From: Mobula hypostoma
Lineage: Eukaryota
Length of the DNA stretch: 64,000 bases
Direction: 5' to 3'
NCBI RefSeq assembly: GCF_963921235.1
Contig: NC_086108.1
Location: forward strand, 34,660,001 to 34,724,000
Made by a program: the position numbers and the translations under genes. Within the stretch, counting starts at the first letter, position 1. Each line of letters opens with the position of its first letter. A model generated the notes under the pieces. The model was not told where the DNA came from. It worked only from the letters and a program-made list of their open reading frames with translations, and did not search any database. Positions 9,640-64,000 of the stretch are shown here, in pieces.

Positions 9640-10325
9640 ATCTACAAGTTGAGTCAGTGGTGAGGAAGGCAAATGTGATCACAGTATTCATTTTGAGAGG
9701 ACAAAAGCAAGGATGTAATACTAATGCTTTATAAGGCACTTGTGAGGCCTCACTTGGAGTATTGTGAGCAGTTTTGGGCCCCTTATCTAAGAAAGCATGT
9801 GCTCACAGTGGAGAGAGTTCAAAGGAGGTTCACGAAAATGATTCCAGGGATTGAAAAGGTTATCGAATGAGGAGTGTTTGATGGCTCTGGGCCTCTACTC
9901 ACTGGAATTTAGAAGAATGATGGGGAAGGGGGGGATCTCATTGAAACCTATTAAATGTTGAAAGACTTCAATAGAGTAGATGTAGAGAAGATGTTTCTTC
10001 TGGGGGAAGAGTTTAGAATTAGAGGACATGGCCTCAGAAAAGAGGGACGCCCATTTAGAATGAAGATGAGAAGGAATTTCTTTTGCCAGGGAGTGGTGAA
10101 TCTGGAATTTGTTGCCACAGGTGGCTGTGAAGGACAAATCATTGCATATTTTTAAAGCAGGGGTTGATGGATTCTGGATTAGTCAGGGCATGAAGGGTTA
10201 TGGGAAGAAGGCAGGAGACTGGGGGTGAGAGGGAAATGAATCCGCCATGATGAAATGGTGCAGCAGACTCAATGGGCCAAATGCCCTAATTCTGCTCCTA
10301 TATCTCATGGTCTTATCTCTGTTTC
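9640..10325 (+). mobile_element. CR1 3' fragment
   Basis: ORF 9955-10155 RIRGHGL...RRNFFCQGVVNL; 3' end ctaattctgctcctatatctcatggtc. Confidence 0.85.
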
Positions 10326-12024: not shown

Positions 12025-13178
12025 GAAGACCAAAGAGATGAGTATGGACTTTAGGAAAGGGCAGGCTGACCACTCCTCACTATACACAAAGCTCATCCTT
12101 GGAGAGAGTTAGAAATACCAAGTTTCTGGGAGTTGACATAACAAATGATCTTACCTGGCCCCTCAACATAACCATCTTAACCAAGAAAACACAGCAGCAT
12201 CTCCACTTCCTGAGGGGGTTGAGGTGAGTGAGGCTCTCCCCCTACCCACATTCTAACGAACTTTTACAGGAGCACTGTTGAGAGCGTCCCGACCAGCCGC
12301 GTCACCGCCTGGCACGGGAATTTAGACATCTGACTGCAAGTCCCTACAAACAATTGCGGGGACTGCTGGGAGGGTCATCAGAGTGTCTCTTCCACCTATC
12401 AAAGATATCAGGAGTGCTGCATATGCAGGCCCATTAGCATTGTCAATGATTCCTCTCATTCATCCAACAATCTCTATGACCCCTAATATCAGTCAGGAGG
12501 AACTGCAGCATTAGCACAGGATCTGATAGGATGGGAAACAGTCTCTTCCCCCGGGCCATAACACTACTGAATTCCCTGCCACCACCCAGGTCTTATCACC
12601 CATGGAACGCCAGTAGCGTTGACAAACAACAAACAGCAGAAGAGATGAAGAGACAGGGGGATGAAAGGGCTGCATGTCTCCAGAATGACAAAAACAGGCA
12701 CAGAAGGAGGAGAGAGGAAGAGACAAAGGAGCTGAGAAATGCACATCTCCAGGATCAGAGACAAAGAACAAACAGCAGAAGAGATGAAGAGACGGGGCTG
12801 AAAGGACTGCACGTCTCCAGAATGGCAACGAGAGGCACAAGGGTGGCAGATAAACCAGAAATGATGCCATCAAAAGTGTCCTTCGTTAAACAAATTTGCT
12901 TTGCTACACATCGTTCTTCTTTAATAAACTGAGGTTTTCTACTTCAGTTTCCAAAGCAAAGTGATACCAATAGCATTCAGCAAAATTTAATGTTCATTCT
13001 GGTCACATCAGACTGCACTACCCTTCTCTCAATGGGTGCCCCAATGGGTCACCCTGTTGTCTCGTATCATTTTATGTATTATATGTATGAGTTATATGTA
13101 CTATGTTGTGTACTTTTGGAGGAGTGCTTGGCGGTATATATGTGTATGATTGCATGGCAATAAACTTGAACTTGAACT
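12025..13178 (+). mobile_element. Rex1/Babar-like LINE 3' fragment, split by an insertion at ~12620-13065
   Basis: Degenerate DFRK, KFLGV, FYRSTVES, NSLFPRAITLLN; tail aataaacttgaacttgaact at 13158-13178. Confidence 0.7.
12620..13065 (+). mobile_element. Probable Helitron remnant with 69-nt (23-aa, EET-periodic) coding repeats and a 3' hairpin
   Basis: Three ~69-nt units at 12632-12840; hairpin gggtgccccaatgggtcaccc at 13034-13054 followed by CTCG/T (degenerate CTAG/T). Confidence 0.55.
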
Positions 13179-13179
13179 A

Positions 13180-13830
13180 AGGGCAGGGCAGTGGACGTTG
13201 AACAGATGAACTTTAGTAAAGCATTTAACAAGCTCCCTCATAGTGGGCAGATCTAGAATATTAAAGTAAATTGATCCAAGGAGATTTGGTAGATTGGATT
13301 CAAAATTATCAAGGCAATCGAAGGCAGAGGACAATGGTGGAAGGGTGTTCTTCTGACTGGAGGTCTGTGACCAGTGATGGTTCACAGGGCTGTGTGTTGG
13401 GACTTGTTTGTGATGTGTGTTAATGATTTGGACAAAAGTGTGGTAGGCTGATAAGCAAATTTGCAGACGACACAAAAATTGGCAGAGCTGTGTGCAATGA
13501 GGAAGATCATCAAGGGATGCTGGTTGTTAAAGACTGGTTGGAAATGCAGGTGGATAAACAAAAATGAAGTTTAATCTGGACAAGTTGCACAAAGGAAGGG
13601 GGAGAGAATACAGTAAATGGTCTGGTCCTTAAGTGCACGGAAGTATAAAAGGGTGTTGAGGTGCTCTTGGTAGGGGGTTAAAGAAGCATTCTGCATTCTC
13701 GCCTTCATTGGCCAGCGCATCGGGTATAAAAACTAGTAAGTCATGTTGCAGCTGTATAAAACTTTGGTCAGGCTGCATCGGGAGTATTGTATGCATTCTG
13801 TTTGACGCATAGCAGTAAGGACGTGGGAGC
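13180..13830 (+). mobile_element. Degenerate CR1 RT fragment
   Basis: agcaaatttgcagacgacacaaaaatt (SKFADDTK) at 13453-13480. Confidence 0.75.
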
Positions 13831-24620: not shown

Positions 24621-25295
24621 TAAATTGCCACGGTTGCTGAATAACCTGCTATGCTGTGCCTGCTTTAAAATGAAAAGAGCAGGTTTTTGGAGACTCATTG
24701 AGCAACTGTAACCACTGTGCTCCAAGATAGAGAGAGGGATCTGGGTATATCAGTGCACTAGTCGTGGAAGAGTAGTAGCAGGCACTACACGTAGTTGGCA
24801 AAGCTGACAGACTATTGCAGTTGCATGCTGGGCTAACTGAATGCAAAGGTAGAGAGGTAATGCTTCAGCTACATTAGTGAGATCATCAGTGAGTGTTAAT
24901 TAACTGGATTTTCAGAAGGCCTTTGACAAGGTGTTGCTGCTAAACAGGATGGAAATAGGAGAGATACTAGCATGGACAGAAGATTGGCATACTGGCAGGA
25001 GGCAAAGAGTGGGAATAAAGGGAGCCTTTTCCAGTTGGCTGCTAGTGACCAGTGCTGTTTTGCGGGGGCGGGTGTTAGGTCCACTGTTTTTCATGTTGCA
25101 TGCTAATGATGCAGATGACAGAATTGATGGCTTCGTGGTCAGTGATACAAAGATAGGTGGAGGGGCAGGTAGTGTCTGCAGGGGACTTGGGCAGATTAGG
25201 GGAATGGGCAAAAAAAAGTGGCAGATAGAGTACAATGTAAGGAAGTGTATGGTCGTGCACTTTGGTAGAAGGAATAAAGGCATAGACTGTTTTCT

Positions 25296-25587
25296 GGACC
25301 TCCAAGAGGACCACAACACTTTTGAAGGGGCTTGGAGACTTGCGTGCCTCAATAACCCAGAGAGTTATATTGGCTGGAGTCGGGGCCTTGTGCTTTGACT
25401 CTTGGTAGTGTCACTCTTGCCAAAGAGGTCAAAGGGTAGATGTCAGACTGAGAGAAGTCCACCAGGTTCGGGGGTTCAGTTCAGGGCTAACAACCGTGAC
25501 TGATATTCCTGAGTCTTTGCCAAGGACAGACAGAGATGGAGGACCTTCATTGCTGCCCTAAACGCCAGTGACATAACAGGAAGTAAC
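25296..25587 (+). mobile_element. Short non-autonomous RTE-derived element (5'UTR-like part fused to RTE C-terminus/3' end)
   Basis: 3' part reads LAKDRQRWRTFIAALNAS, an RTE-type C-terminus; imperfect TSD agactgttttct / aaactattttct. Confidence 0.6.
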
Positions 25588-25822
25588 AAACTATTTTCTA
25601 AACGGGGAGAGAATTCAAAAATCAGATGTGCAATGCGACTTAATGCAGGATTCCCTAATGGTTAACTTGAAGGATGTGTTAGTGGTAAGGAAGACTAATG
25701 CAATTTTAGCATTCATTTTGAGAGGACTAGAATATAAAAGCAAAGATGTAATGCTGAGGCTTTAAAATGCATCGGTCAGACCACACTTGGAGTATTGTGA
25801 GCAGTTTGGGCTCCAAATCCAA

Positions 25823-32410: not shown

Positions 32411-33003
32411 GAAGCTTGGTACTGTAACTGATGAACAGCAGGTTAAAGTCGAAGTAATATGCTCACTTTCCATCAGCTGCTCTCCAGATTCTGCTACTCA
32501 CCAATACACTTGGGGGCAATTTACAGCGGATAATTCACCTACCAACCTACATCTCTTGGGGGTGTTGGAGAAAATCCAGACCATCACAGAGAGAATGTGC
32601 AATCCCCGCAGGGGTCACTCCCAAGGTCAGGACTGAACCTGGGTCACTGTAGCTATCAGGCAGCAATGCTGCTACCTGCATCGCTGCGCTAGACTGGAAG
32701 CCAGTGGGAATCCGAGAAGATGCCGGTGAGCATAATGGTGGAAGTCAGCTACAGGCTTGGCAGTGCTTTAGAACTGAAGGTGGAAGCCGTGAGGCAGACC
32801 AGAGGAGTAGCAAACCCACCAATGAATCCCTATCAAAGAAATGATTGGCAAGATCCCTCAGCAAATGTTGTGCATCGATTTACTGTACCACTCCTCCAAC
32901 GGTACATAGAAACATAGAAACATAGAAAATAGGTGCAGGAGTAGGCCATTCGGCCCTTCGAGCCTGCACCGCCATTTATTATGATCATGGCTGATCATCC
33001 AAC

Positions 33004-36000
33004 TCAGAACCCCGCCCCAGCCTTCCCTCCATACCCCCTGATCCCCGTAGCCACAAGGGCCATATCTAACTCCCTCTTAAATATAGCCAATGAACTGGCC
33101 TCAACTGTTTCCTGTGGCAGAGAATTCCACAGATTCACCACTCTCTGTGTGAAGAAGTTTTTCCTAATCTCGGTCCTAAAAGGCTTTCCCTTTATCCTCA
33201 AACTGTGACCCCTTGTTCTGGACTTACCCAACATCGGGAACAATCTTCCTGCATCTAGCCTGTCCAATCCCTTTAGGATTTTATACGTTTCAATCAGATC
33301 CCCCCTCAATCTTCTAAATTCCAACGAGTACAAGCCCAGTTCATCCAGTCTTTCTTCATATGAAAGTCCTGCCATCCCAGGAATCAATCTGGTGAACCTT
33401 CTTTGTACTCCCTCTATGGCAAGGATGTCTTTCCTCAGATTAGGGGACCAAAACTGCACACAATACTCCAGGTGTGGTCTCACCAAGGCCTTGTACAACT
33501 GCAGTAGTACCTCCCTGCTCCTGTACTCGAATCCTCTCGCTATAAATGCCAGCATACCATTCGCCTTTTTCACCGCCTGCTGTACCTGCATGCCTACTTT
33601 CAATGACTGGTGCATAATGACACCCAGGTCTCGTTGCACCTCCCCTTTTCCTAATCGGCCACCATTCAGATAATAATCTGTTTTCCTATTTTTGCCACCA
33701 AAGTGGATAACTTCACATTTATCCACATTAAATTGCATCTGCCATGAATTTGCCCACTCACCCAACCTATCCAAGTCACTCTGCATCCTCTTAGCATCCT
33801 CCTCACTGCTAACACTGCCACCCAGCTTCGTGTCATCCGCAAACTTGGAGATGCTGCATTTAATTCCCTCATCCAAGTCATTAATATATATTGTAAACAA
33901 CTGGGGTCCCAGCACTGAGCCTTGCGGTACCCCACTAGTCACTGCCTGCCATTCTGAAAAGGTCCCGTTTATTCCCACTCTTTGCTTCCTGTCTGCTAAC
34001 CAATTCTCCATCCACAGCAATACCTTACCCCCAATATCGTGTGCTTTAAGTTTGCACACTAATCTCCTGTGTGGGACCTTGTCAAAAGCCTTTTGAAAAT
34101 CCAAATATACCACATCCACTGGTTCTCCCCTATCCACTCTACTAGTTACATCCTCAAAAAATTCTATGAGATTCGTCAGACATGATTTTCCTTTCACAAA
34201 TCCATGCTGACTTTGTCCGATGATTTCACCGCTTTCCAAATGTGCTGTTATCACATCCTTGATAACTGACTCCAGCAGTTTCCCCACCACCGACGTTAGG
34301 CTAACCGGTCTATAATTCCCCAGTTTCTCTCTCCCTCCTTTTTTAAAAAGTGGGGTTACATTAGCCACCCTCCAATCCTCAGGAACTAGTCCAGAATCTA
34401 ACGAGTTTTGAAAAATTATCACTAATGCATCCACTATTTCTTGGGCTACTTCCTTAAGCACTCTAGGATGCAGACCATCTGACCCTGGGGATTTATCTGC
34501 CTTCGATCCCTTCAATTTACCTAACACCACTTCCCTACTAACATGTATTTCGCTCAGTTCCTCCATCTCACTGGACCCTCTGTCCCCTACTATTTCTGGA
34601 AGATTATTTATGTCCTCCTTAGTGAAGACAGAACCAAAGTAATTATTCAATTGGTCTGCCATGTCCTTGCTCCCCATAATCAATTCACCTGTTTCTGTCT
34701 GTAGGGGACCTACATTTGTCTTTACCAGTCTTTTCCTTTTTACATATCTATAAAAGCTTTTACAGTCCGTTTTTATGTTCCCTGCCAGTTTTCTCTCATA
34801 ATCTTTTTTCCCCTTCCTAATTAAGCCCTTTGTCCTCCTCTGCTGAACTCTGAATTTCTCCCAGTCCTCAGGTGAGCCACTTTCTCTGGCTAATTTGTAT
34901 GCTTCTTCTTTGGAATTGATACTATCCCTAATTTCTCTTGTCAGCCACGGGTGCACTACCTTCCTTGATTTATTCTTTTGCCAAACTGGGATGAACAATT
35001 GTTGTAGTTCATCCATGCAACCTTTAAATGCTTGCCATTGCATATCCACCGTCAATCCTTTAAGTGTCATTTGCCAGTCTGTCTTAGCTAATTCACGTCT
35101 CATACCTTCAAAGTTACCCCTCTTTAAGTTCAGAACCTTTGTTTCTGAATTAACTATGTCACTCTCCATCTTAATGAAGAATTCCACCATATTATGGTCA
35201 CTCTTACCCAAGGGGCCTCTCACGACAAGATTGCTAATTAACCCTTCCTCATTGCTCAAAACCCAGTCCAGAATAGCCTGCTCTCTAGTTGGTTCCCGAC
35301 ATGTTGGTTCAAAAAACCATCCCGCACACATTCCAAGAAATCCTCTTCCTCAGCACCTTTACCAATTTGGTTCACCCAATCTACATGTAGATTGAAGTCA
35401 CCCATTATAACTGCTGTTCCTTTATTGCACACATTTCTAATTTCCTGTTTAATACCATCTCCGACCTCACTACTACTGCTAGGTGGCCTGTACACAACTC
35501 CCACCAGCGTCTTCTGCCCCTTAGTGTTACGCAGCTCTACCCATATCGATTCCACATCTTCCCAGCTTATGTCCTTCCTTTCTATTGCGTTAATCTCTTC
35601 TTTAACCAGCAACGCCACCCCACCTCCCCTTCCTTCATGTCTATCCCTCCTGAATATTGAATATCCCTGAACGTTGAGCTCCCATCCTTGGTCACCCTGG
35701 AGCCATGTCTCTGTGATCCCAACTATATCATAATCATTAATAACAATCTGCACTTTCAATTCATCCACCTTATTACGAATGCTCCTTGCATTGACACACA
35801 AAGCCTTCAGGCGCTCTTTTACAATTCTCTTAGCCCTTATACAATTATGTTGAAATGTGGCCCTTTTTAATGCTTGCCCTGGATTTGTCGGCCTGCCACT
35901 TTTACTTTTCTCCTTAGTACTTTTTGCTTCTACCCTCACTTTACACCCCTCTGTCTCTCTGCACTGGTTCCCATCCCCCTGTTGTGAACTAACCTCCTCA

Positions 36001-36056
36001 CGCCTAGCCTCTTTAATTTGATTCCCACCCCCCAACCATTCTAGTTTAAAGTCACC
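33004..36056 (-). pseudogene. CR1 ORF2 (APE endonuclease + reverse transcriptase), one 1-nt frameshift near 35296
   Basis: ORFs 35256-36035 (NARSI, GITETW, GGGVAL, GDFN) and 33004-35331 (YRPVSLTS, QHGF, LDFQKAFDKV, GVPQGSVLGP, FADD). They join if GTCGGGAACCA is restored to GTC GAG GAA CCA. Confidence 0.93.
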
Positions 36057-36975
36057 TCAGTAGCCCTCGCTAATCTCCCTGCCAGGATATGGTCCCCCTA
36101 GGATTCAAGTGTAACCCGTCCTTTTTGTACAGGTCACGCCTGCGCCAAAAGAGGTCCCAATGATCCAAAAACTTGAATCCTTGCCCCCTGCTCCAATCCC
36201 TCAGCCACGCATTTATCCTCCACCTCATCGCATTCCTACTCTCACTGTCACGTGGCACAGGCAGTAATCCCGAGATTACTACCTTTGCGGTCCTTTTTCT
36301 CAACTCCCTTCCTAGCTCCCTATATTCTCCTTTCAGGACCTCATCCCTTTTCCTACCTATGTCATTGGTACCTATATGTACCACGACCTCTGGCTCCTCA
36401 CCCTCCCACTTCAGGATATCTTGGACACGAGCAGAAATATCCCGGACCCTGGCACCAGGGAGGCAAACTACCATCCGGATCTCTGGACTGCGTCCACAGA
36501 ATCGCCTATCTGACCCCCTTACTATCGAGTCCCCTATCACAACTGCCCTCCTCTTCCTTGCCCTACCCTTCTGAGCTACAGGGCCAGACTCTGTGCCGGA
36601 GGCACAGCCACTGTCGCTTCCCCCGGGTAAGCTGTCCCCCCCAACAGTACTCAAACAGGAGTACCTATTGTTAAGGGGCACAGCCACCGGGGTACTCCCT
36701 ATTACCTGACTCTTCCCCTTCCCACTCCTAACCGTGACCCACTCGTCCGCCTCCCGTGGCCCCGGCGTGACCACCTGCCTGCAACTCTTCTCTACCAACT
36801 CCTCACTCTCCCTGACCAGACGAAGGTCATCGAGCTGCAGCTCCAGTTCCGTAACGCGGTCCCTTAGGAGCTGCATCTCGATGCACTTGGCGCAGATGTA
36901 GACGTCCGGGAGGCTTGGAGACTCCAGGGCCTCCCACATCTGACACCGAGAACAGCAAACTGCCCTCACACTCCT
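36041..36975 (-). pseudogene. CR1 ORF1 (C4 zinc finger, coiled coil, SGNH esterase); start codon apparently ATG>AGG and a 1-nt deletion near the C-terminus
   Basis: Motifs CSRC...CAKC, GDSIVRG, VVVHIGTNDI, DGLHLNPRGT. The paralogue at 60730 has ATG at the position equivalent to AGG 36975-73. The paralogue at ~60395 reads GGG ACC AAT where this copy reads GGG ACC AT-. Confidence 0.88.
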
Positions 36976-37999
36976 ACTGCCCCTCTCCTCAAATAACAAC
37001 AGAAAATGAATGCCAAACCTTCCTCGCCTTGCCCGTTTCCGCCTAAGCCCGTTGAGCCGCAGCCCTTAAGCCTTCACTCTGCTCCCTGCTCACTCCGCCG
37101 CCCGCAAACTACGCTGCCCGCTCTATGAGGTCTATGTTTTCTATGTTTTCCCTTTGAGGTCTAAAGTTGAAATCACTTAAATGGTGACTGAAAACGTAAG
37201 TGTTCACTATTGATGACCAAACCCAAACACAGTTAAACATTGAAAATCCAAATAGCTTTGAAGCAGTGACTCCATACTTGCTATTACTTAAATGCTGCGT
37301 AGCAGTTACCCATCCATAATTTCCAAATGTTGCTTCCAAATTGAAAGTGTGTGGCAAAAATTCATTCAGTTGCCTTTATTTCATGAAGGTTGGCTGCATT
37401 ACCCAGATCAACACAGAGTGGCAATGTGAGACAATTTTTTGGATTGTCTATTACCACTAATTAAAATTTGCCCAAAAAAGGTTTGGGAGTGATGATGCTT
37501 CTCCCATTTTACAAAGGCACAAGTACATTAATGGGTGTTCATGCCCATGGCAGAAGTAGCAGATGTGATGCAAAGGGAATTTGAGGTCCTGATTTCTGTG
37601 AAGAGACAAGATTGTTCCATTATCTACCGTTCCTCCGTCAGTGTCATTTGTTTTGCTCCCTTCACATCTGTCCACCCCAAGTCTGCAACTTTGTACATTT
37701 ACGCTCACCTGTATGGAACGCTGGCATATTAACACAAGGACTATAGGAGATGGTGTAGACTGGAGGATTCCCGAACTCTTCTATGCCATAAATCAGTACT
37801 GTACCATTAAGCAAGAGGTTCTGTGGACCCCAGGTTAATTCCATTGACAACTCCATTATGATGTGGCTTGCTATCTTACCTGTAGCCTAGTTATCTGCCT
37901 CACCAAATTCTTGAACCTCTAAACACCCTACACCCCACCTTTTTTGGGGAGTGTATTACAGATCAGTGTCACCTTCTTTTGTGGGGGAAAGGTTTCTTG

Positions 38000-42509: not shown

Positions 42510-44345
42510 TCAGAATTACAGTCAGTTTAATATCTCGGGCACATGTCGCAAAATGTGTTGTTGTGTAGCAGCAGTACATTGCAAAACATAATAATAATAA
42601 ACTATAAATGACAAAAAGTATATATTAAAAATTAAATTAAATAAGTAGTGTTATATAAAAAAGAGAGGGAAAAGAATAGTGAGGTGGTGTTCATGGGTTC
42701 ACTGTCCATTCAGAAATTTGATGGCAGAGGGGAAGAAGTGGTTCCTGTTTGGGCTCCTGTACCTCCCTCTTGATGGTAGCAGTGAGAAGAGGGCATTCCC
42801 TGGATGATGGGATCCTTAATGATGGATGTCGTCTTTTTGAGGCATTGGCCTTTGAAGCTTTTCTCAGTGCTGGGGAGGATAGTGCCCATGATGGAGGTAG
42901 CAGAGTTCACAACTTCCTGCAGCTGTTTGCAATCCTGTGCAGTGGCCCGCCAAACCAGACGGTGATGTAACAGGTTAGATTGCTCTCCACGGTGCATCTG
43001 TAGAAATTTGCAAGAATCTTTAGTGACATACCCCAGGTTTCCTCAAACTCCTAATGAAATCTAGCCGCTGTTGTGCCTCCTTTGTAATCGCATCAATATG
43101 TTGGGCCCAGGACAGATCTTCAGAGATGTTGACACCCAGGAATTTGAAAACGCTTACCCTTTCCACGTCTGATCCCTCAATAAGGACTGGTGTGTGTTCT
43201 CTCACCTTCCCCTTCCTGAAGTCCATACTTGGTCGCAGTGATGTTGAGTGCTAGGTTGTTGTTGCGACACCACACAACCAGCTGATCTGTCTTGCCCCTG
43301 TACACCTCCTTGTCACCATCTGAAATTCTGCCACCAATAGTTGTGTCGTTGGCAAATTTATAGGTTCCGTTTGAGCTTTGCCCATCTACACAGCTGTGAC
43401 TGTAGAGCAGTGGTCTAAATGCACATCGTTGAGGTGTGCCAGTGTTGATTGCCAAGGAGGGGGAGATGTTATCTCTGATCCGTACAGACTGTGCTGTCCT
43501 GGTGAGGATGCCAAGGATCCACTGGCAGAGGGAGGCATAGAGACCCAGGTTTTGCAGCTTGTTGATTGGAACTGAGGGTATGATTGTGTCAAACACTGAG
43601 AATCAATAAACAGCAGCCTGATGTAGGTATTACTATTGTCCAGCTGATCCAAGGCCGAGTGGAGAGCTGGTAAGATTGCATCTGCTGTAGACCTACTGTG
43701 TCAACAGGCAAATTGCAGTGGGTCCAGTTCCTAGCTTAGGCAGGAAATCATCAACCTCTCAAAGCACTTCATCATAGTAGATGTGAGTACCACTGCAAAA
43801 AGTCATTGAGGAAGCTCATCCTGCTCTTTTTGGGCACCGGTATGAGTGTTGCTCTTTTGAAGCAGGTGGAAACCTCCAACTGCAGTAGTGAGAGAATGAA
43901 GATGCCCTTGAACACTCCCTGACGCCTTGTGAAGGTTCACCCTCTTGAAAGATATTCTGATGTCATCTTCCGAGACAGAGATCACGGGGTCACCGGATGC
44001 TGCAGGGATTTGCACAGGCGTAGTTTCATTTCCCCTTTCAAAGCGTGCATAAAAGGTGTTGAGCTCATCTGGTAGTGAAGCATCAAAACCATTCATGATG
44101 TTAGGTTTCTCTTTGTAGAAAGGAATGGCCTGCAAAGCCTGCCAGCGTTGACATGCATCTGATCCTGTCTCTAACCTCAATCACAGTTGCTTTTTTTGCT
44201 TTTAAAATAGCCTTCCATAGGTCATACCCGGATTCTTGTATAGTTCTGGATCACAGGTCTTAAATGCCACAGATCTAGCCTTCAGCAGACTACAAATCCC
44301 CTGGTTCATCGACGCCTTTTGTTTTGGGTATGTCTGGTATGTTGT
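42510..44345 (-). mobile_element. ~1.8-kb degenerate Rex1/Babar-like LINE
   Basis: ORFs 43803, 43386, 43177 (GTPQRC...YKFANDTT), 43020 (DFRKGK...ERVSVFKFLGV) and 42710. Confidence 0.9.
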
Positions 44346-44454
44346 GTAGTAATGTACAGTGAAGCATCTTCGGCTGTTACTGTGCTAAATGCATCCTGTG
44401 AATGGAAGCTGCTATTGATGGATCTGAATATGCCAGTATGGACTGGATAATCTA

Positions 44455-45161
44455 ACCCCATCAGTTTTACAGTGTGTCAGTGTGGACATGGTGGAGGATT
44501 ACAAATACCTGGGGATACGAATTGACAATAAACTGGACTGGTCAAAGAACACTGAGGCTGTCTACAAGATGGGTCAGAGCCGTCTCTATTTCCTGAGGAG
44601 ACTGAGGTCCTTTAACATCTGTCAGACGATGCTGAGGATGTTCTACGAGTCTGTGGTGGCCAGTGCTATCATGTTTGCTGTTGTGTGCTGGGGCAGCAGG
44701 CTGAGGGTGGCAGACACCAACAGAATCAACAAACTCACTTGTGATGCCAGTGATGTTGTGGGGATGGAACTGGACTCTCTCACGGTGGTGTCTGAAAAGA
44801 GGATGCTGTCCAAGTTGCATGCCATCTTGGACAATGTCTCCCATCCACCACATAATGTACTGGGTGGGCACAGGAGTACATTCAGCCAGAGACTCATTCC
44901 ACCGAGATGCAGCACAGAGCGTCATAGGAAGTCATTCCTGCCTGTGGCCATCAAACTTTACAACTCCTCCCTTGGAGGGTCGGACACCCTGAGCCAATAG
45001 GCTGGTCTTGGACTTATTTCATAATTTACTGGCATAATTTACATATTATTATTTAATTATTTATGGTTTTATATGGCTATATTTATACTCTGTTCTTGGT
45101 TGGTGCAACTGTAACGAAACCAAATTTCCCCCGGGATCAATAAAGTATGACTATGACTATG
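44455..45161 (+). mobile_element. Rex1/Babar-like LINE 3' end (younger, sense orientation)
   Basis: ORF 44482-45000 YKYLGIRIDNKLDWSKNT...RKSFLPVAIKLYN; tail aataaagtatgactatgactatg. Confidence 0.88.
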
Positions 45162-45197
45162 CTTATTTACAATGGAATATAATGAAAGTTGAAAGGC

Positions 45198-45950
45198 ATT
45201 GAATTGAATTAAATTTATTTAAATCTTACATCCATCCCACAACGTGAGGGAGTAAAAATCTTTACGATTTGACTCTGTCGCAATGTACACTTATGTGAAT
45301 TTAAAAGTCTAATAGCTTGCAGAAAGAAGCTGTCCCATAGCCTGTTGGTCTTGGCTTTAATGCTGTGGGTCCGTTTTCCAAACGGAAGCAGCTGAAACAG
45401 TTTATGGTTGGGGTGACTGGTGTCCCCAGTGATCTTCCAGGCCTTCTTTCTGCACCTGCTGCTATAAATGTCTTTAATGGAGGGAGGTTCATGGCCACAG
45501 ATGTGCTGGGCTGTCTGTACCACTGTCTGCAGTGCCCAGCGATTTAGTTTGGTGCAGTTCCCATACCAGGCAGTGAAACAGCCAGTCAGTGTGCTCTCAA
45601 TGTGCCCCTGTAGAAGGTCTTGAGGATTTGGCAGCCCATGCCAAACTTTTTCAGTCACCTGAGGTGGAAGAGACGCTGTTGTGCTTTTTTTGCCACGAAG
45701 CCGGTGTGTACAGAGCAGTTGAGATTGTCAGTGATGTGTATACTGAGAAACTTGAAACTACTCACCCTCTCAACTGCAGACCCATTGATGTTGATTGGGG
45801 ACCGAACCTGTCGCCGTACCTCCTGTAATCCACAATCAGCTCTTTTGTCTTTTTTGGACATTGAGGGAGAGATTATTATCTTGTCACCACTGTGTCAGGG
45901 TATCAACCTCTCCTCTGTAGGCTGTCTCATCACTGCTAGAAATAAGGCCA
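45198..45950 (-). mobile_element. Rex1/Babar-like LINE 3' fragment, tail-to-tail with the preceding copy
   Basis: ORFs 45655-45861 (VERVSSFKFLSI) and 45215-45658 (ESTLTGCFTAWYGNC). Confidence 0.85.
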
Positions 45951-53579: not shown

Positions 53580-56145
53580 AATGAGGGTAATAAGAAGTGA
53601 AGTCTTGGATTATATGCATGTTACAAGAAAGGGGGTATTTGCAGCCTTGAAGCACATTAAGGTGGATGAATCCTTGGTACTGTAATACCATAAGACGTAG
53701 GAGCAGTATTAGGCCAGTCAGCCTTTTGAGTCTGCTGCACCATTTCATCATGCCTGATCTATTATCCCTCTCAACCCCATTCTTCTGACTTCTCCCCATA
53801 ACCTTTGATGCCCTGACTAATCAAGAACCTAGCAACCTCCACATTAAAATGTACCCAATGACTTGGTACCTAACCAGGTGCACCACCAGACCTTATGGAA
53901 GGCCAGGGAAGAAATCACTGGGACCCTCATAGTGATATTTGTTCTATTGTTACCCATTGGCAAAGTTCCAGAAGACTGGAGGATGACAGGAGTTATTCCA
54001 TTGTTCAAGAAAGGTAGCAAGGACGAGCCAGGGAACTACAGGTTACTCTATGGAATTACAGGGACAAGATCTACCATCAGTTTGGATAGTCCTGGTCTGA
54101 TCAGGGATAGTCAGCATGCTTTATGCATGCGAGGTCATGTCTGATGAGCTTTTTGTAGTTCTGCCAAGAGATAATTTATGGGATAGATGAAGGCAGGGCG
54201 GCTGATGTTGTTTATATCGACAAGGTCACGCATGACAGGTTGATGTGGAAGGTTAAGTTGCATGGTACTCAGGGAGCTAACAAGGTGGGTTAAGGATTAG
54301 TTCAATGACGGGAAGCAATATGTGACGGTTGAATGTCAATTCTCTGAAGACCTGTGCCCAAGGGGCCAGGGCTGGGACCTCTGTTATTCATTATGTATGT
54401 AAATGATTTGGATTTGACTATACATGGCACGATTTGTAAGTTTGCAGATGGTAATAGTGTATTTTTTGTCATAGAGTCATAGAACACTACAACACAGAAA
54501 CCTCAGCCAATCTAGCCCACGCTGAATTATTAATCTGCCTAGTCCCATTGATCTGCAACCAGACCTTCACCCTCCATATCCCTGCCATCCATGTACCAAT
54601 CTAAATTTCACTTCGATGTTGAAATCGACCATGGATCCACCACTTGAACCAGCAGCTCATTCTACACACTCACCACCTCTGAGTGAAGATGTTCCAACTC
54701 ATGTTTCCCTCAAATATTTCACCTTTCACCCTTAACCCATGACATTTAGTTGTAGCCTCGCCAAACCTCGGTGGAAAAAGACGAGAAAATCTGCGGATGC
54801 TGGAAATGCAAGCGACCCACACATAGTGCCAGAGGAACTCAGCAGGTCAGGCGGCATCTATGGAAAAGAGTAAACTGATGAAGGGTCTCGGCTTGAAACA
54901 TTGACTGTTTATTCTTTTCCAGAGACACTGCCTGACCTGCTGAGCTGCTCCAGCATCTTGTGTTTGTTGCTCAGTGGAAGAAGCTTGTTTGCATTTGCAG
55001 TATCTATACCCTCATCATTTTGTATACCCCTGTCAAGTCTCACCTCAATCTTCTGCGTTCCAGGGATTAAAGTCATAACCTTGTCAAACTTTCTCTATAA
55101 CTGAGGTCCTCAAGTCTCTGTTCTCTATCAATCTTATTTATATCTTTACTGTAGGAAGGTGACCAAAACTGCTCACTATATTCCAAATTAGGCCTCACCA
55201 ATGTCCTATACAACTTCAATATAACATTCCAACTCCTGTACTCAATATATTTTATTTATGAAGGCCAATATGCCAAAAGCTTTCTTTACAAGCCTATCTC
55301 TCTCCACCACTTTCAAGGAATTATTGATCTATATTCCCAGATCCCTCTGTTCTACTTTACACTTCAATGTCCAAACACTCACTTATATAAGACCTACCTT
55401 GGTTGGTCCTCCCAAAAGTGAAATACCTCAGGCTTGTCTGAATTAAATTCCATCTTTCATTTTTCAGCCCACTTTTCCAACTGGCCCAGATCCTGCTACA
55501 AGCTTTGATAATCTTCCTCACTGTCCATAAGATCCCCAATCTTGGTCATCCAGAAACTTGTTGGTCCAGTTTACCACATTATCATCCAGATCGTTAATAT
55601 AGATGCATAACAACAACATACTCAGCACCATTTCCTGTGGCATACAGGACATTGTATACAGTTTTGGTCATCCTGTTATTAGGAAAGCTGGGCTGGGTGT
55701 ACAAGATGTTGACAACGATACTGCCTGGATTAGAGGGCTTAAGTTATAGGGAGAGGTTGATCACACTAGACCTTTATTCCTTAGAATTCAGAAGAATGAG
55801 GGTGACCTCATCAAAAGTTATAAAATTCATGAGGGGTATGGATAAGGTGGACAGTTGTTGCCTTTTCCCCAGGATTGGGGCGTCCAAAACAAGAGGTCAC
55901 AGATACAAGAGGGGAGAGATTTAAAAGAGACCTGAGGCGTAACTTCTTTACACAGAGGCTAATGGGCTGCAGACAAAGTGGTTGACGCAGGGACAATTTC
56001 AAGATTTAAGAGGCATTGGTACTGCTATATAGAGAAAAGGTGTTTGGAGAGTTATACGTTGAAGATGGACAACTGAGACCAGCAGGGAGAATGGTGTGGT
56101 TGACATGGAGTAGTTGGGCCAAAGGACCTGTTTCTATCCTATACT
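53580..56145. mobile_element. Nested CR1 fragments: + strand host (53580-54460, 55636-56145) with - strand inserts (53685-53860, 54470-55635)
   Basis: ORF 53863 KVPEDWRM..VIPLFKKGSKDEPGNYR; aagtttgcagatg at 54438; ORF 55637 LYSLEFRRMR; - strand tails at 53690 and 54470. Confidence 0.78.
54781..54972. repeat. Palindromic Penelope-derived repeat with hammerhead core in the loop
   Basis: Arms ~54810-54874 and ~54907-54972 are complementary; the loop reads CTGATGA-AGGGTCTCGGCTT-GAAA-CATTGACTG (54875-54907). Confidence 0.72.
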
Positions 56146-59764: not shown

Positions 59765-60529
59765 CCCCATTACAATTGTGACATTACGTTTATTACATGC
59801 CCTTTCCAGCTCCCTTTGCAATCTCAACCCTACATCTTGACTACTATTTGGAGGCCTGTATATGATTCACATAATGTTTTTTTTTCACCCTTGCATTTTC
59901 TTAACTCCACCCACAAAGATTCAACATTGTCCAACCCTATGTCACCTCTTTCTAAAGATGCAATTCCATCTCTTAACCACAGAGCCACACTACTGCCTCT
60001 GCCTTCCTTTCGATGCAATGTATATCCTTTGATATTAAGTTCCCAACTATGATCCTCTTTCATCCACGAGTCAGTGATGCCCACAACATCATTTCAACCA
60101 ATCTTTAATTGCGCCACGAGTTCATCCACCATATTCCAAATACTACGTGCATTTAAATACAGCACCCTCAGTCCTGCATCCTTTGCCTTTTTGAATTTTG
60201 CCTCTGTGGTACAATTTAACTCTTGGCACTGTCTGCATTTGTACCCAATCATTGGCTTGTCCTTCCTTACATTCATGTTACACCCACCATCTACTTGTAA
60301 ACCTGCTGGTTCATTCTCAGCTCTGTCATACTTGTTCCCATCCCCCTGCCATATTAGTTTAAACCAGTCCCAACATGTCTGGTAAACCTGCTTGCAAAGG
60401 TATTGGTCCCCCTCAGATTCAGGTGCAACACATCTCTTTTGTACTGGTCTCACCTGCCCCAGAAGAGGTCCCAATTGTCCAGAAATCTGAATCACTGCCC
60501 CCTACTCCAATTCTTCAGCCGTGCGTTTA
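59765..60529 (-). mobile_element. Internal CR1 fragment (third subfamily): ORF1 C-terminus, junction, endonuclease N-terminus
   Basis: Reads ...YKRDVLHLNLRGTNTFASRFTRHVGTGLN* then LRVLYLNARSI and GITDSW...VESLWVELR. No 3' tail. Confidence 0.88.
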
Positions 60530-62421
60530 TCTGGCACCTCAAGTGCATGGACGTCAGCGAGTTAGAACAGCAAGAAGAGTTTAAAAGGACGTAGCTTTAT
60601 AGAGCAGGAGTCAGAGGACCGAGTGACAGAGTCAAGGGAGACAGAGTAGGAGGGCTTTGGCTCAACAGGGCTTTGGTGATAACAGGCCAAAGCGAGGTCA
60701 GTTACTTGTGAAGAATAGAAACAGGAAGTATGTCTGCGAGACCGGTGTTCTGTACTGAGTGTCAGATGTGGGAAGTCCGGGAGACTCTCAGCCTCCCAGA
60801 CGGTCACAACTACGCCTGGTGCATTGAGCTCCAGCTCCTTAGGGACCAGCTTAGAGAACTGGAGATGCAGCTCGATGACCTTCGTCTGGTCAGGGAGAGT
60901 GAGGAGGTGATAGAGAGGAGTTATAGGTAAGTAGTCACACCAGGGCCTTGGGAGACAAGTAAGTGGATAACAGGAGAGGGAAGGGCAAGAGTCAGATACT
61001 AGAGAGTACCCCAGGGCTGTCCCCCTTAATAGGAAGGTTTGCTAAGGCTATTGGGGAGAGTTTAAACCAGAATTGCTGGGGGGTGGGAACCGAGCTGAAG
61101 AGACAGAGGATGGGGCGGTTTGCTCACAAATAGAGAAAGCTTATAGACAGTGCGAGAGGGAGGGTAGGCAAGTGATAGAGAAGGATACGCTCAGACCGAT
61201 GGTTTGAGATGTGTCAATTTTAATGCAAGGGGTATTATGAACAAAGTGGATGAGCTTAGAATGTTGATCAGTACTTGGAACTATGATATTGTGGCCATTA
61301 CAAAGACTTGGATGGTTCAGGGGCAGGAATGGCTACTTAGAGTACCAGGCTATTGATGTTTCAGAAAGTACAAGGAGGGAGGCGAAAGAGGTGGGGGCGT
61401 GGCACTGCTGATCAGAGATAGTGTCACAGCTGCAGAAAAGAGAGAAGTCATGGAGGGATTGTCTACTGAGTCTTTGTGGGTGCAAGTTAGGAACAGGAAG
61501 GGGTCAAAATCTCTACTGGGTGTTTTTTATAGACCACGAGGAGCAGATAGGGAGACAGATTCTGGAAAGGTGTAATAATAACAGGGTTGTCGTGGTCAGA
61601 GATTTTAATTTCTCAAATATTGATTGGCATTTCCCTAGAGCAAGGGGTTAAGATGGGGTGGAGTTTGTTAGGTGTGTTCAGGAAGGTTTCTTGACGTCAT
61701 ATGTAGATAAGCCTACAAGAGGAGAGGCTGTACTTGATCTGGTGTTGGGAAATGAACCTGGTAAGGTGTCAGATCTCTCAGTGGGAGAGCATTTTGGAGA
61801 TAGTGATCACAATTCTATCTCCTTTACCTGTTCATGTGTTGGAGAGGGATAGGGATAGACGAGTTAGGAAAGTGTTTAATTGTAGTAAGGGGAAATATGA
61901 GGCTATCAGGCAGGAATTTGGAAGCATAAATTAGGAACAGGTGTTTTCAGGGAAATGTACGGCAGAAATGTGGCAAATGTTCAGGGGGTATTTGCGTGGT
62001 GTTCTGCATTGGTATGTTCCAGTGAGACAGAGAAAGGATGGTAGGGTACAGGAACCATAGTGTGCAAAGGCCTTTGTAAATCTAGTCAAGAAGAAAAGAA
62101 AAGCTTTTGAAAGGTTCAAAAAACTAGGTAATAATAGAGATCTAGAAGATTATAAAACTAGCAGGAAGGAGCTTAAGGATAAAATTAGGAGAGACAGAAG
62201 GGGCCATGAGAAGGCCTTGGCAGATAGGATTAAGGAAAACCTCAAGGCATTCTACAAGTATCTGAAGAGCAAGAGGATAAGATGTGAGAGAATAGGACCA
62301 ATCAAGTGCGACAGTGGAAAAATGTGTATGGAACCGGAGGAGATAGCAGAGGTACTTAACGAATACTTCGCTTCTGTATTCACTACAGAAAAGGACCTTG
62401 GTGATTGTAGGGATGACATAC
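60530..62421 (+). mobile_element. Older CR1 (different subfamily): 5'UTR, ORF1 N-terminus, esterase deleted, degenerate endonuclease/tether; interrupted by the young CR1
   Basis: ORF 60730 MSARPVFCTECQMWEV...LQLLRDQLRELEMQLDDLRLVRESEE; ORFs at 61658 and 62217 are ORF2 homologues with stops and frameshifts. Confidence 0.9.
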
Positions 62422-64000
62422 ATGGATATGCAATGGCAGGCATTTAAAGGTTGCATGGATGAACTACAACAATTGTTCATCCCAGTTTGGCAAAAGAATA
62501 AATCAAGGAAGGTAGTGCACCCGTGGCTGACAAGAGAAATTAGGGATAGTATCAATTCCAAAGAAGTAGCATACAAATTAGCCAGAGAAAGTGGCTCACC
62601 TGAGGACTGGGAGAAATTCAGAGTTCAGCAGAGGAGGACAAAGGGCTTAATTAGGAAGGGGAAAAAAGATTATGAGAGAAAACTGGCAGAGAACATAAAA
62701 ACGGACTGTAAAAGCTTTTATAGATATGTAAAAAGGAAAAGACTGATAAAGACAAATGTAGGTCCCCTGCAAACAGAAACAGGTGAATTGATTATGGGGA
62801 GCAAGGACATGGCAGACCAATTGAATAATTACTTTGGTTCTGTCTTCACTAAGGAGGACATAAATAATCTTCCAGAAATAGTAAGGGACAGAGGGTCCAG
62901 TGAGATGGAGGAACTGAGCGAAATACATGTTAGTAGGGAAGTGGTGTTAGGTAAATTGAAGGGATTGAAGGCAGATAAATCCCCAGGGCCAGATGGTCTG
63001 CATCCCAGAGTGCTTAAGGAAGTGGCCCAAGAAATAGTGGATGCATTAGTGATAATTTTTCAAAACTCGTTAGATTCTGGACTAGTTCCTGAGGATTGGA
63101 GGGTGGCTAATGTAACCCCACTTTTTAAAAAAGGAGGGAGAGAGAAACCGGAGAATTATAGGCCGGTTAGCCTAACGTCGGTGGTGGGGAAACTGCTGGA
63201 GTCAGTTATCAAGGATGTGATAACAGCACATTTGGAAAGCGGTGAAATGATCGGACAAAGTCAGCATGGATTTGTGAAAGGAAAATCATGTCTGACGAAT
63301 CTCATAGAATTTTTTGAGGATGTAACTAGTAGAGTGGATAGGGGAGAACCAGTGGATGTGGTATATTTGGATTTTCAAAAGGCTTTTGACAAGGTCCCAC
63401 ACAGGAGATTAGTGTGGAAACTTAAAGCACACGGTATTGGGGGTAAGGTATTGGTGTGGGTGGAGAATTGGTTAGCAGACAGGAAGCAAAGAGTGGGAAT
63501 AAACGGGACCTTTTCAGAATGGCAGGCGGTGACTAGTGGGGTACCGCAAGGCTCAGTGCTGGGACCCCAGTTGTTTACAATATATATTAATGACTTGGAT
63601 GAGGGAATTAAATGCAGCATCTCCAAGTTTGCGGATGACACAAAGCTGGGTGGCAGTGTTAGCAGTGAGGAGGATGCTAAGAGGATGCAGGGTGACTTGG
63701 ATAGGTTGGGTGAGTGGGCAAACTCATGGCAGATGCAATTTAATGTGGATAAATGTGAAGTTATCCACTTTGGTGGCAAAAATAGGAAAACAGATTATTA
63801 TCTGAATGGTGGCCGATTAGGAAAAGGGGAGGTGCAACGAGACCTGGGTGTCATTATACACCAGTCATTGAAAGTGGGCATGCAGGTACAGCAGGCGGTG
63901 AAAAAGGCGAACGGTATGCTGGCATTTATAGCGAGAGGATTCGAGTACAGGAGCAGGGAGGTACTACTGCAGTTGTACAAGGCCTTGGTGAGACCACACC
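62422..64000 (+). mobile_element. 5'-truncated young CR1 copy (open RT frame running off the window), same subfamily as 32905-37123
   Basis: Reverse complement of ~33470-35047 with roughly 27 substitutions in ~1.58 kb by my manual count. Frame is open from ATG at 62428. Confidence 0.96.

Follow-up and report, generated by a model that had tools for sequence, protein, structure and literature searches.

In retroviral gag-pol genes and in the coronavirus IBV, a slippery heptamer of the form X_XXY_YYZ ends a structural ORF and the enzyme ORF lies in the -1 frame, an arrangement that recurs at the ORF1/ORF2 junction of the CR1 elements described here. According to the available sections of a frameshifting review (PMC5009743), the IBV frameshift site is U_UUA_AAC, which is among the most shift-prone eukaryotic heptamers; a minority of stimulators, located 12-15 nt downstream, are linear RNA that works together with trans-acting factors; natural G-quadruplex frameshift stimulators are described there as not known. 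In PRRSV, nsp1beta/PCBP stimulate frameshifting on a linear 3' motif (same sections of PMC5009743). The CR1 motif is comparable to it but is G-rich, and a factor bound to it would be an analogy with PRRSV.

Among LINEs, ORF2 of Dictyostelium TRE5-A and TRE3-A requires a -1 frameshift according to the legend of a review figure (PMC5911963). Like CR1, these are APE-type LINEs, although they differ in clade and host. SART1 and mammalian L1 likewise have an ORF2 to be translated from a bicistronic LINE RNA. Translation of SART1 ORF2 is attributed to an overlapping UAAUG (PMC3894237), and that of L1 ORF2 to AUG-independent initiation after a spacer (PMC5009743); both differ from frameshifting in that no ORF1-ORF2 fusion results. 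Chicken and turtle CR1 and ZfL2-1 share an esterase ORF1 and an endonuclease-reverse transcriptase (EN-RT) ORF2 with the elements analysed here, and the bird-type elements also share the junction motif. A full-text literature search, outside of which lie the original CR1 papers (Haas 1997, Kajikawa 1997, Kapitonov and Jurka 2003), returned no frameshift proposal for the CR1 junction. The available parts of PMC13343379, PMC4316615, PMC3905857, PMC4255032, PMC2734521, PMC4700185 and PMC5006619 do not mention one, and the term 'CR1' is absent from those of the frameshifting review (PMC5009743). By sequence comparison, we consider it likely that the CR1 junction is a programmed -1 frameshift site giving an ORF1-ORF2 fusion.

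Structure of the CR1 element and its ORF1/ORF2 junction

The window, that is, the whole 64,000-nt stretch of Mobula hypostoma DNA that was analysed, contains a CR1-type LINE on the minus strand (about 32905-37140) with a zinc finger/esterase ORF1, an EN-RT ORF2 and 3' repeats. ORF1 (36041-36975, minus strand) codes for a GDSL/SGNH esterase together with a Cys motif; in the window copy it is interrupted by one base near 36090. The esterase matched PF13472 (E 1e-16) and the ZfL2-1-type esterase structure PDB 4c1b (E 4.7e-42), the Cys columns were conserved, and the closest named ORF1 protein, from M. hypostoma, was 96% identical across the esterase. A database cluster look-up gave generic GDSL clusters only, and scans of viral contigs turned up no relative. 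ORF2 (33004-36050, minus strand) matched PF03372 (endonuclease) and PF00078 (reverse transcriptase), with the NARS motif at 35792, the first Met at 35405 and a frame break near 35300. Between the heptamer and the endonuclease lies a variable linker (35793-36043, minus strand), open in the -1 frame, and the 3' tail consists of three 8-base repeats (32905-32928, minus strand). A 3' end made of short tandem 8-base repeats is a feature of CR1-type LINEs. We take HER1 to be the name given to CR1 of sharks and rays. Other, more distant LINE fragments bearing reverse transcriptase were seen in the window at 9697-10301, 13116-13504, 24904-25819, 43243-45727 and 53869-55243, and several public gene models with host names (P0007, P0018, P0028, P0055, P0187 and P0197) are partly or wholly CR1 ORF1/ORF2.

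The first-pass annotation had proposed that ORF1 and ORF2 are joined by a -1 frameshift on TTTAAAC in three divergent copies, and the heptamer was found at all three sites (36050-36044 and 60363-60357 on the minus strand, 61061-61067 on the plus strand). The three junction regions are 53-54% identical across 330 nt. At the first site, the heptamer U_UUA_AAC forms the last codons of ORF1 (36044-36050), the stop TAG abuts it (36041-36043; TAG or TAA in other families), and a G run, the candidate stimulator, occupies 36024-36033, all on the minus strand. The second copy, from an older family, carries the heptamer followed by TAA (60354-60363, minus strand). In the third family (61061-61070, plus strand), the heptamer was as annotated, whereas the CAG reported after it proved to be decay of the stop in the single window copy, the family itself carrying TAG. 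The third-family junction belongs to a composite stretch (60727-64000, plus strand) with a 5' part of ORF1 and a deleted esterase, which from 62423 onward is 98% identical to the element at 32905-37140.

The ORF1 frame, which the annotation had obtained by repairing the window copy, needs no assumption at the junction, because intact sister copies end at the same Leu-Asn-stop: in L009, L018 and L030, ORF1 is uninterrupted over 336-339 codons and ends in Thr-Leu-Asn-stop. Sister copies 98-100% identical to the window element carried the heptamer in 30 of 30 cases, and 29 of the 30 had a -1-frame stop two codons ahead of it (36057-36059, minus strand, in the window), which shuts ORF2 upstream. 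Exactly as annotated, the -1 frame becomes open at 36056, and the ORF1 stop ends 16 nt further on, at 36041. ORF2 was also correctly described as having no early Met, the first being codon 216 in AVIMGDFN, after the NARS, ITETW and YRPP motifs. By comparison with L1 endonuclease, a protein started at codon 216 would presumably miss catalytic endonuclease residues. TTTAAAC by itself is common, with 15 matches over both strands of the window; it is the constant position at the end of ORF1, not the heptamer itself, that goes beyond chance.

Conservation of the heptamer in the M. hypostoma genome

In order to sample copies without regard to the junction, we searched the genome for the ORF1 peptide pattern DGLHLNxxG, which gave 19,502 matches (5 for the control), and took the first 100 listed. 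Exact TTTAAAC occurred 55-95 nt downstream in 79 of these copies, at an identical offset in 66; the remaining 21 comprised 10 with a one-base change, 5 with two and 6 in which it was lost or deleted, and each variant turned up at most twice. Among the 67 copies stopping at codon 27, codon 25 was TTA in 64 and a synonym in none, and codon 26 was AAC in 61, AAT in 1 and otherwise changed in 5. Codon 24 ended in T in 66 of the 67, coding for Gly, Thr, Ser, Ala, Asp, Asn, Val or Cys depending on the copy. An upstream Leu-Asn pair in the same copies (codons 5-6) varied between TTG (35) and CTG (30) and between AAC (39) and AAT (28), and the stop was TAA in 28. Ending in T is not peculiar to codon 24 in the ray genome, as codon 21 does so in 60 of the 67 copies.

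Counts over the whole genome were 22,141 for heptamer-stop-7 nt-GGGGG and 8 for the reversed control. With the same tail, stop-7 nt-GGGGG, the AAT variant was found 766 times and the TTG variant 313 times; changing the stop to CAR, a stop-destroying control, gave 364. A non-T first base gave 1,418 matches (control 113), partly from an unrelated repeat. Synonymous heptamer variants thus remain at the level of decay, and among the matches listed (100 each) variants were scattered across all family tags, as decay predicts. We inspected 20 variant places, of which 11 with G first were decayed CR1 copies adjoining G runs, one was a TTG copy, and 8 with A first belonged to an unrelated repeat. G_UUA_AAC may be a sub-variant in one ray family; a recurring A_UUA_AAC variant of CR1 was rejected, since all 8 inspected places were the unrelated repeat. 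That repeat family (L229-L236, G000:C1) looks non-coding, mimics the pattern with A first and begins beside microsatellite-rich sequence.

Additional protein searches found the heptamer exact in 11 of 12 copies of one family and in only 4 of 12 of an old, stop-ridden ray lineage, whose other copies differ from one another. In aligned sequencing contigs no differing letter was listed at 36033-36050 and the flanks varied, a weak observation from runs not recorded as RNA.

Reading frame of the linker

In a survey of 94 junctions, the start of the endonuclease could be located in 70, and in 54 of these the linker was in the -1 frame, with a length of 34-106 codons apart from one deleted copy of 13. 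Per 100 linker codons there were 0.46 stops in the -1 frame, as against 7.9 and 11.7 in the two remaining frames, and in 57 of the 70 junctions a stop shut the ORF2 frame no more than 5 codons upstream. Linker coding therefore starts at the heptamer. The junction thus has an X_XXY_YYZ in the ORF1 frame and a -1 ORF that is open from the heptamer and shut upstream, as is expected of a frameshift site. Ray and bird gene models built on broken copies pass from ORF1 into FKL (10 of 120). The motif DxExNPGP of 2A-bearing CR1 elements was not found near the ORF2 N-terminus in any of 272 loci. Inside the linker of the window family, the G-rich motif was seen a second time, there lacking the heptamer, at 35966-35981 (minus strand), perhaps as a trace of recombination or duplication.

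Conservation beyond the genome

ORF1 homologues ended in LN in 49 of 64 cases from sharks, rays, coelacanth, frogs, turtles, lizards, a snake and a hummingbird, and in 94 of 120 cases of the invertebrate type, and LN held at the ORF end although the tail after DGLH ranges from 26 to 39 residues. Amino acids without a T-ending codon (K, E, Q, M or W) directly precede LN in 2 of 49 proteins but occupy the two positions before that in 20 and 22 of the 49. In an ORF1 esterase tree, the ray, coelacanth, frog, turtle, squamate and bird sequences formed a group apart from the invertebrate type, arranged roughly by host with weak inner support. Two invertebrate-side proteins, P0053 and P0056, end in Q-G-N, which fits an alternative slippery heptamer G_GGA_AAC.

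A DNA scan of metagenomes gave 48 contigs, of which 29 stop short of the junction or gave no C-terminal match. The 19 that pass the end of ORF1 comprised 16 with TTTAAAC, 1 with TTTAAAT, 1 with GTTAAAC and 1 diverging earlier; contig L190 has G_UUA_AAC, as do some ray copies. Heptamer-bearing contigs include bird-type and annelid-type elements with about 40-50% DNA identity to the ray families: the best matches of L161 ORF2 were bird proteins, and the L188 esterase was 86% identical to a Ridgeia piscesae protein. Across 19 lineage representatives, the terminal Leu was TTA in 18/18 and the Asn AAC in 18/18, other conserved Leu/Asn columns being mixed; one His column was also invariant (12/12). 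This lineage set was hand-picked, in that 4 of 23 clusters were dropped as frame-shifted and a copy with an intact motif was preferred in 3; without selection, the heptamer was exact in 15 of 23 first-listed cluster members and in 52 of 61 copies. The comparison of TTA-AAC that the first-pass annotation had suggested as a check thus came out in its favour, the two codons being fixed across lineages that differ in their other Leu/Asn codons, and the codon ahead of them ending in T for many different amino acids. As expected of a frameshift site, the heptamer is conserved beyond coding need.

The G run and the search for a stimulator

The conserved G tract of the annotation was confirmed, with a different spacing, the G run starting after a 10-nt spacer from the heptamer rather than 8. 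Its five positions were G in 17, 19, 15, 19 and 16 of the 19 lineage representatives. In 17 of 18, the codon before the Gly codons of the run had G as its last base, across six amino acids, and GGG was the codon for both Gly residues (15/15 and 12/12), versus 51 of 165 elsewhere in ORF2. Judged from these codon choices, the G run is conserved as nucleotides.

Local folding of the 60 and 100 nt past the stop in 18 lineages gave no conserved stem-loop (z -2.4 to +1.6), and a G-quadruplex was predicted in only 3 of the 18 and is not conserved. The region past the heptamer has no C-rich partner for the G run as far as simple stems and duplexes are concerned, and a duplex scan of the G run in 22 long copies found no common long-range partner site; the CLPG codons, a candidate partner, matched partially and were rejected, the match being lost in annelid-type copies. 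By sequence, the CR1 site resembles a retroviral gag-pol site yet lacks the canonical 3' structure. It differs from the retroviral and IBV sites in that CR1 is a non-LTR element in which no 3' hairpin or pseudoknot was found, the adjacent stop and the G run standing in their place.

Alternative explanations of the junction motif

Ribosomes could instead finish ORF1 at its stop and start again on ORF2, in the manner of SART1 or L1, and the motif would then be a termination/re-initiation signal. Mechanisms of this type are described for those elements (in the available parts of PMC3894237 and PMC5009743), the stop is conserved to the same degree as the heptamer, and an in-frame ATG lies two bases past the stop in bird-type L161, L163, L166 and L170 and in ray family L094, with TTG, GTG or ACG at that codon in other lineages; in L177 the stop and an ATG overlap. 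However, the codon is TGG or TGC in abundant ray families, 38 of 54 linkers have no Met at all (16 have some), and in the window family the nearest ATG past the stop is out of frame, an in-frame Met not appearing until beyond most endonuclease motifs. A SART1-type AUG at or beside the ORF1 stop is absent from the window family and most ray families, and re-initiation leaves the exact in-frame X_XXY_YYZ, with ORF2 always at -1, unexplained. We regard re-initiation, the most serious of the alternatives, as unlikely, and frameshifting and re-initiation could be combined in one lineage, e.g. in L161, L163, L166, L170, L094 and L177, which retain the heptamer.

A separate RNA for ORF2, made through a splice acceptor or an internal promoter at the motif, seems highly improbable. 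TTTAAA is TATA-like and TAG offers a possible acceptor AG, but the splice-acceptor reading fails because the TAA families, 28 of the 67 copies, have no AG, and a pyrimidine tract is absent. Such an RNA would still be without a usable Met in most families, and contigs of four runs showed no joint near the junction, which is weak evidence as the runs were not recorded as RNA. Least probable of all is that the motif was kept for the sake of the terminal Leu-Asn of the ORF1 protein or by shared descent alone. LN forms the end of the last esterase helix by comparison with 4c1b, and the ray families share one ancestor; however, synonyms are excluded here and other conserved Leu/Asn codons are free to vary, the motif persists at about 40% nucleotide identity between lineages, and the alignment to the solved ZfL2-1 esterase chain ends four profile positions early. 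This explanation is largely refuted. Stop readthrough was rejected, the ORF1 frame shutting again after 37 codons in L013, as was transcriptional slippage at the G run, because the run lies downstream of the stop.

Proposed mechanism

The reading of the junction as a -1 frameshift site is supported as a prediction: given the conserved heptamer, stop and G run, and an ORF2 that begins one base back and usually has no nearby start codon, ribosomes likely slip by -1. Most ribosomes would terminate at the ORF1 stop and release the ORF1 protein (ORF1p), and a minority would slip on U_UUA_AAC, giving an esterase-linker-endonuclease-reverse transcriptase fusion. The slip would be a tandem tRNA slippage on the heptamer, during a pause that may be due to slow decoding of the adjoining stop, and the G run may stimulate it, probably by binding a factor or by interacting with the mRNA channel, not as a hairpin.

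More tentatively, esterase-bearing CR1 elements from annelids to birds may share a single Gag-Pol-style -1 frameshift since early bilaterians. Instead of an RNA structure, it would depend on the stop next to the heptamer and on a linear G run that a trans-acting factor, possibly ORF1p, recognises; this would be a new class of natural stimulator that sets the ratio of ORF1p to ORF2p and tethers the reverse transcriptase to the ORF1p particle.

Significance

CR1 has been called the dominant retrotransposon in most vertebrates (PMC13343379), and the translation of LINE ORF2 is treated as an open question (PMC3894237). If the frameshift reading is true, the CR1 reverse transcriptase would be made as a Gag-Pol-like fusion, which would explain the frequent absence of an ORF2 Met. 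The ORF2 N-terminus in annotations would have to be redefined, and CR1 would supply a structure-free -1 stimulator.
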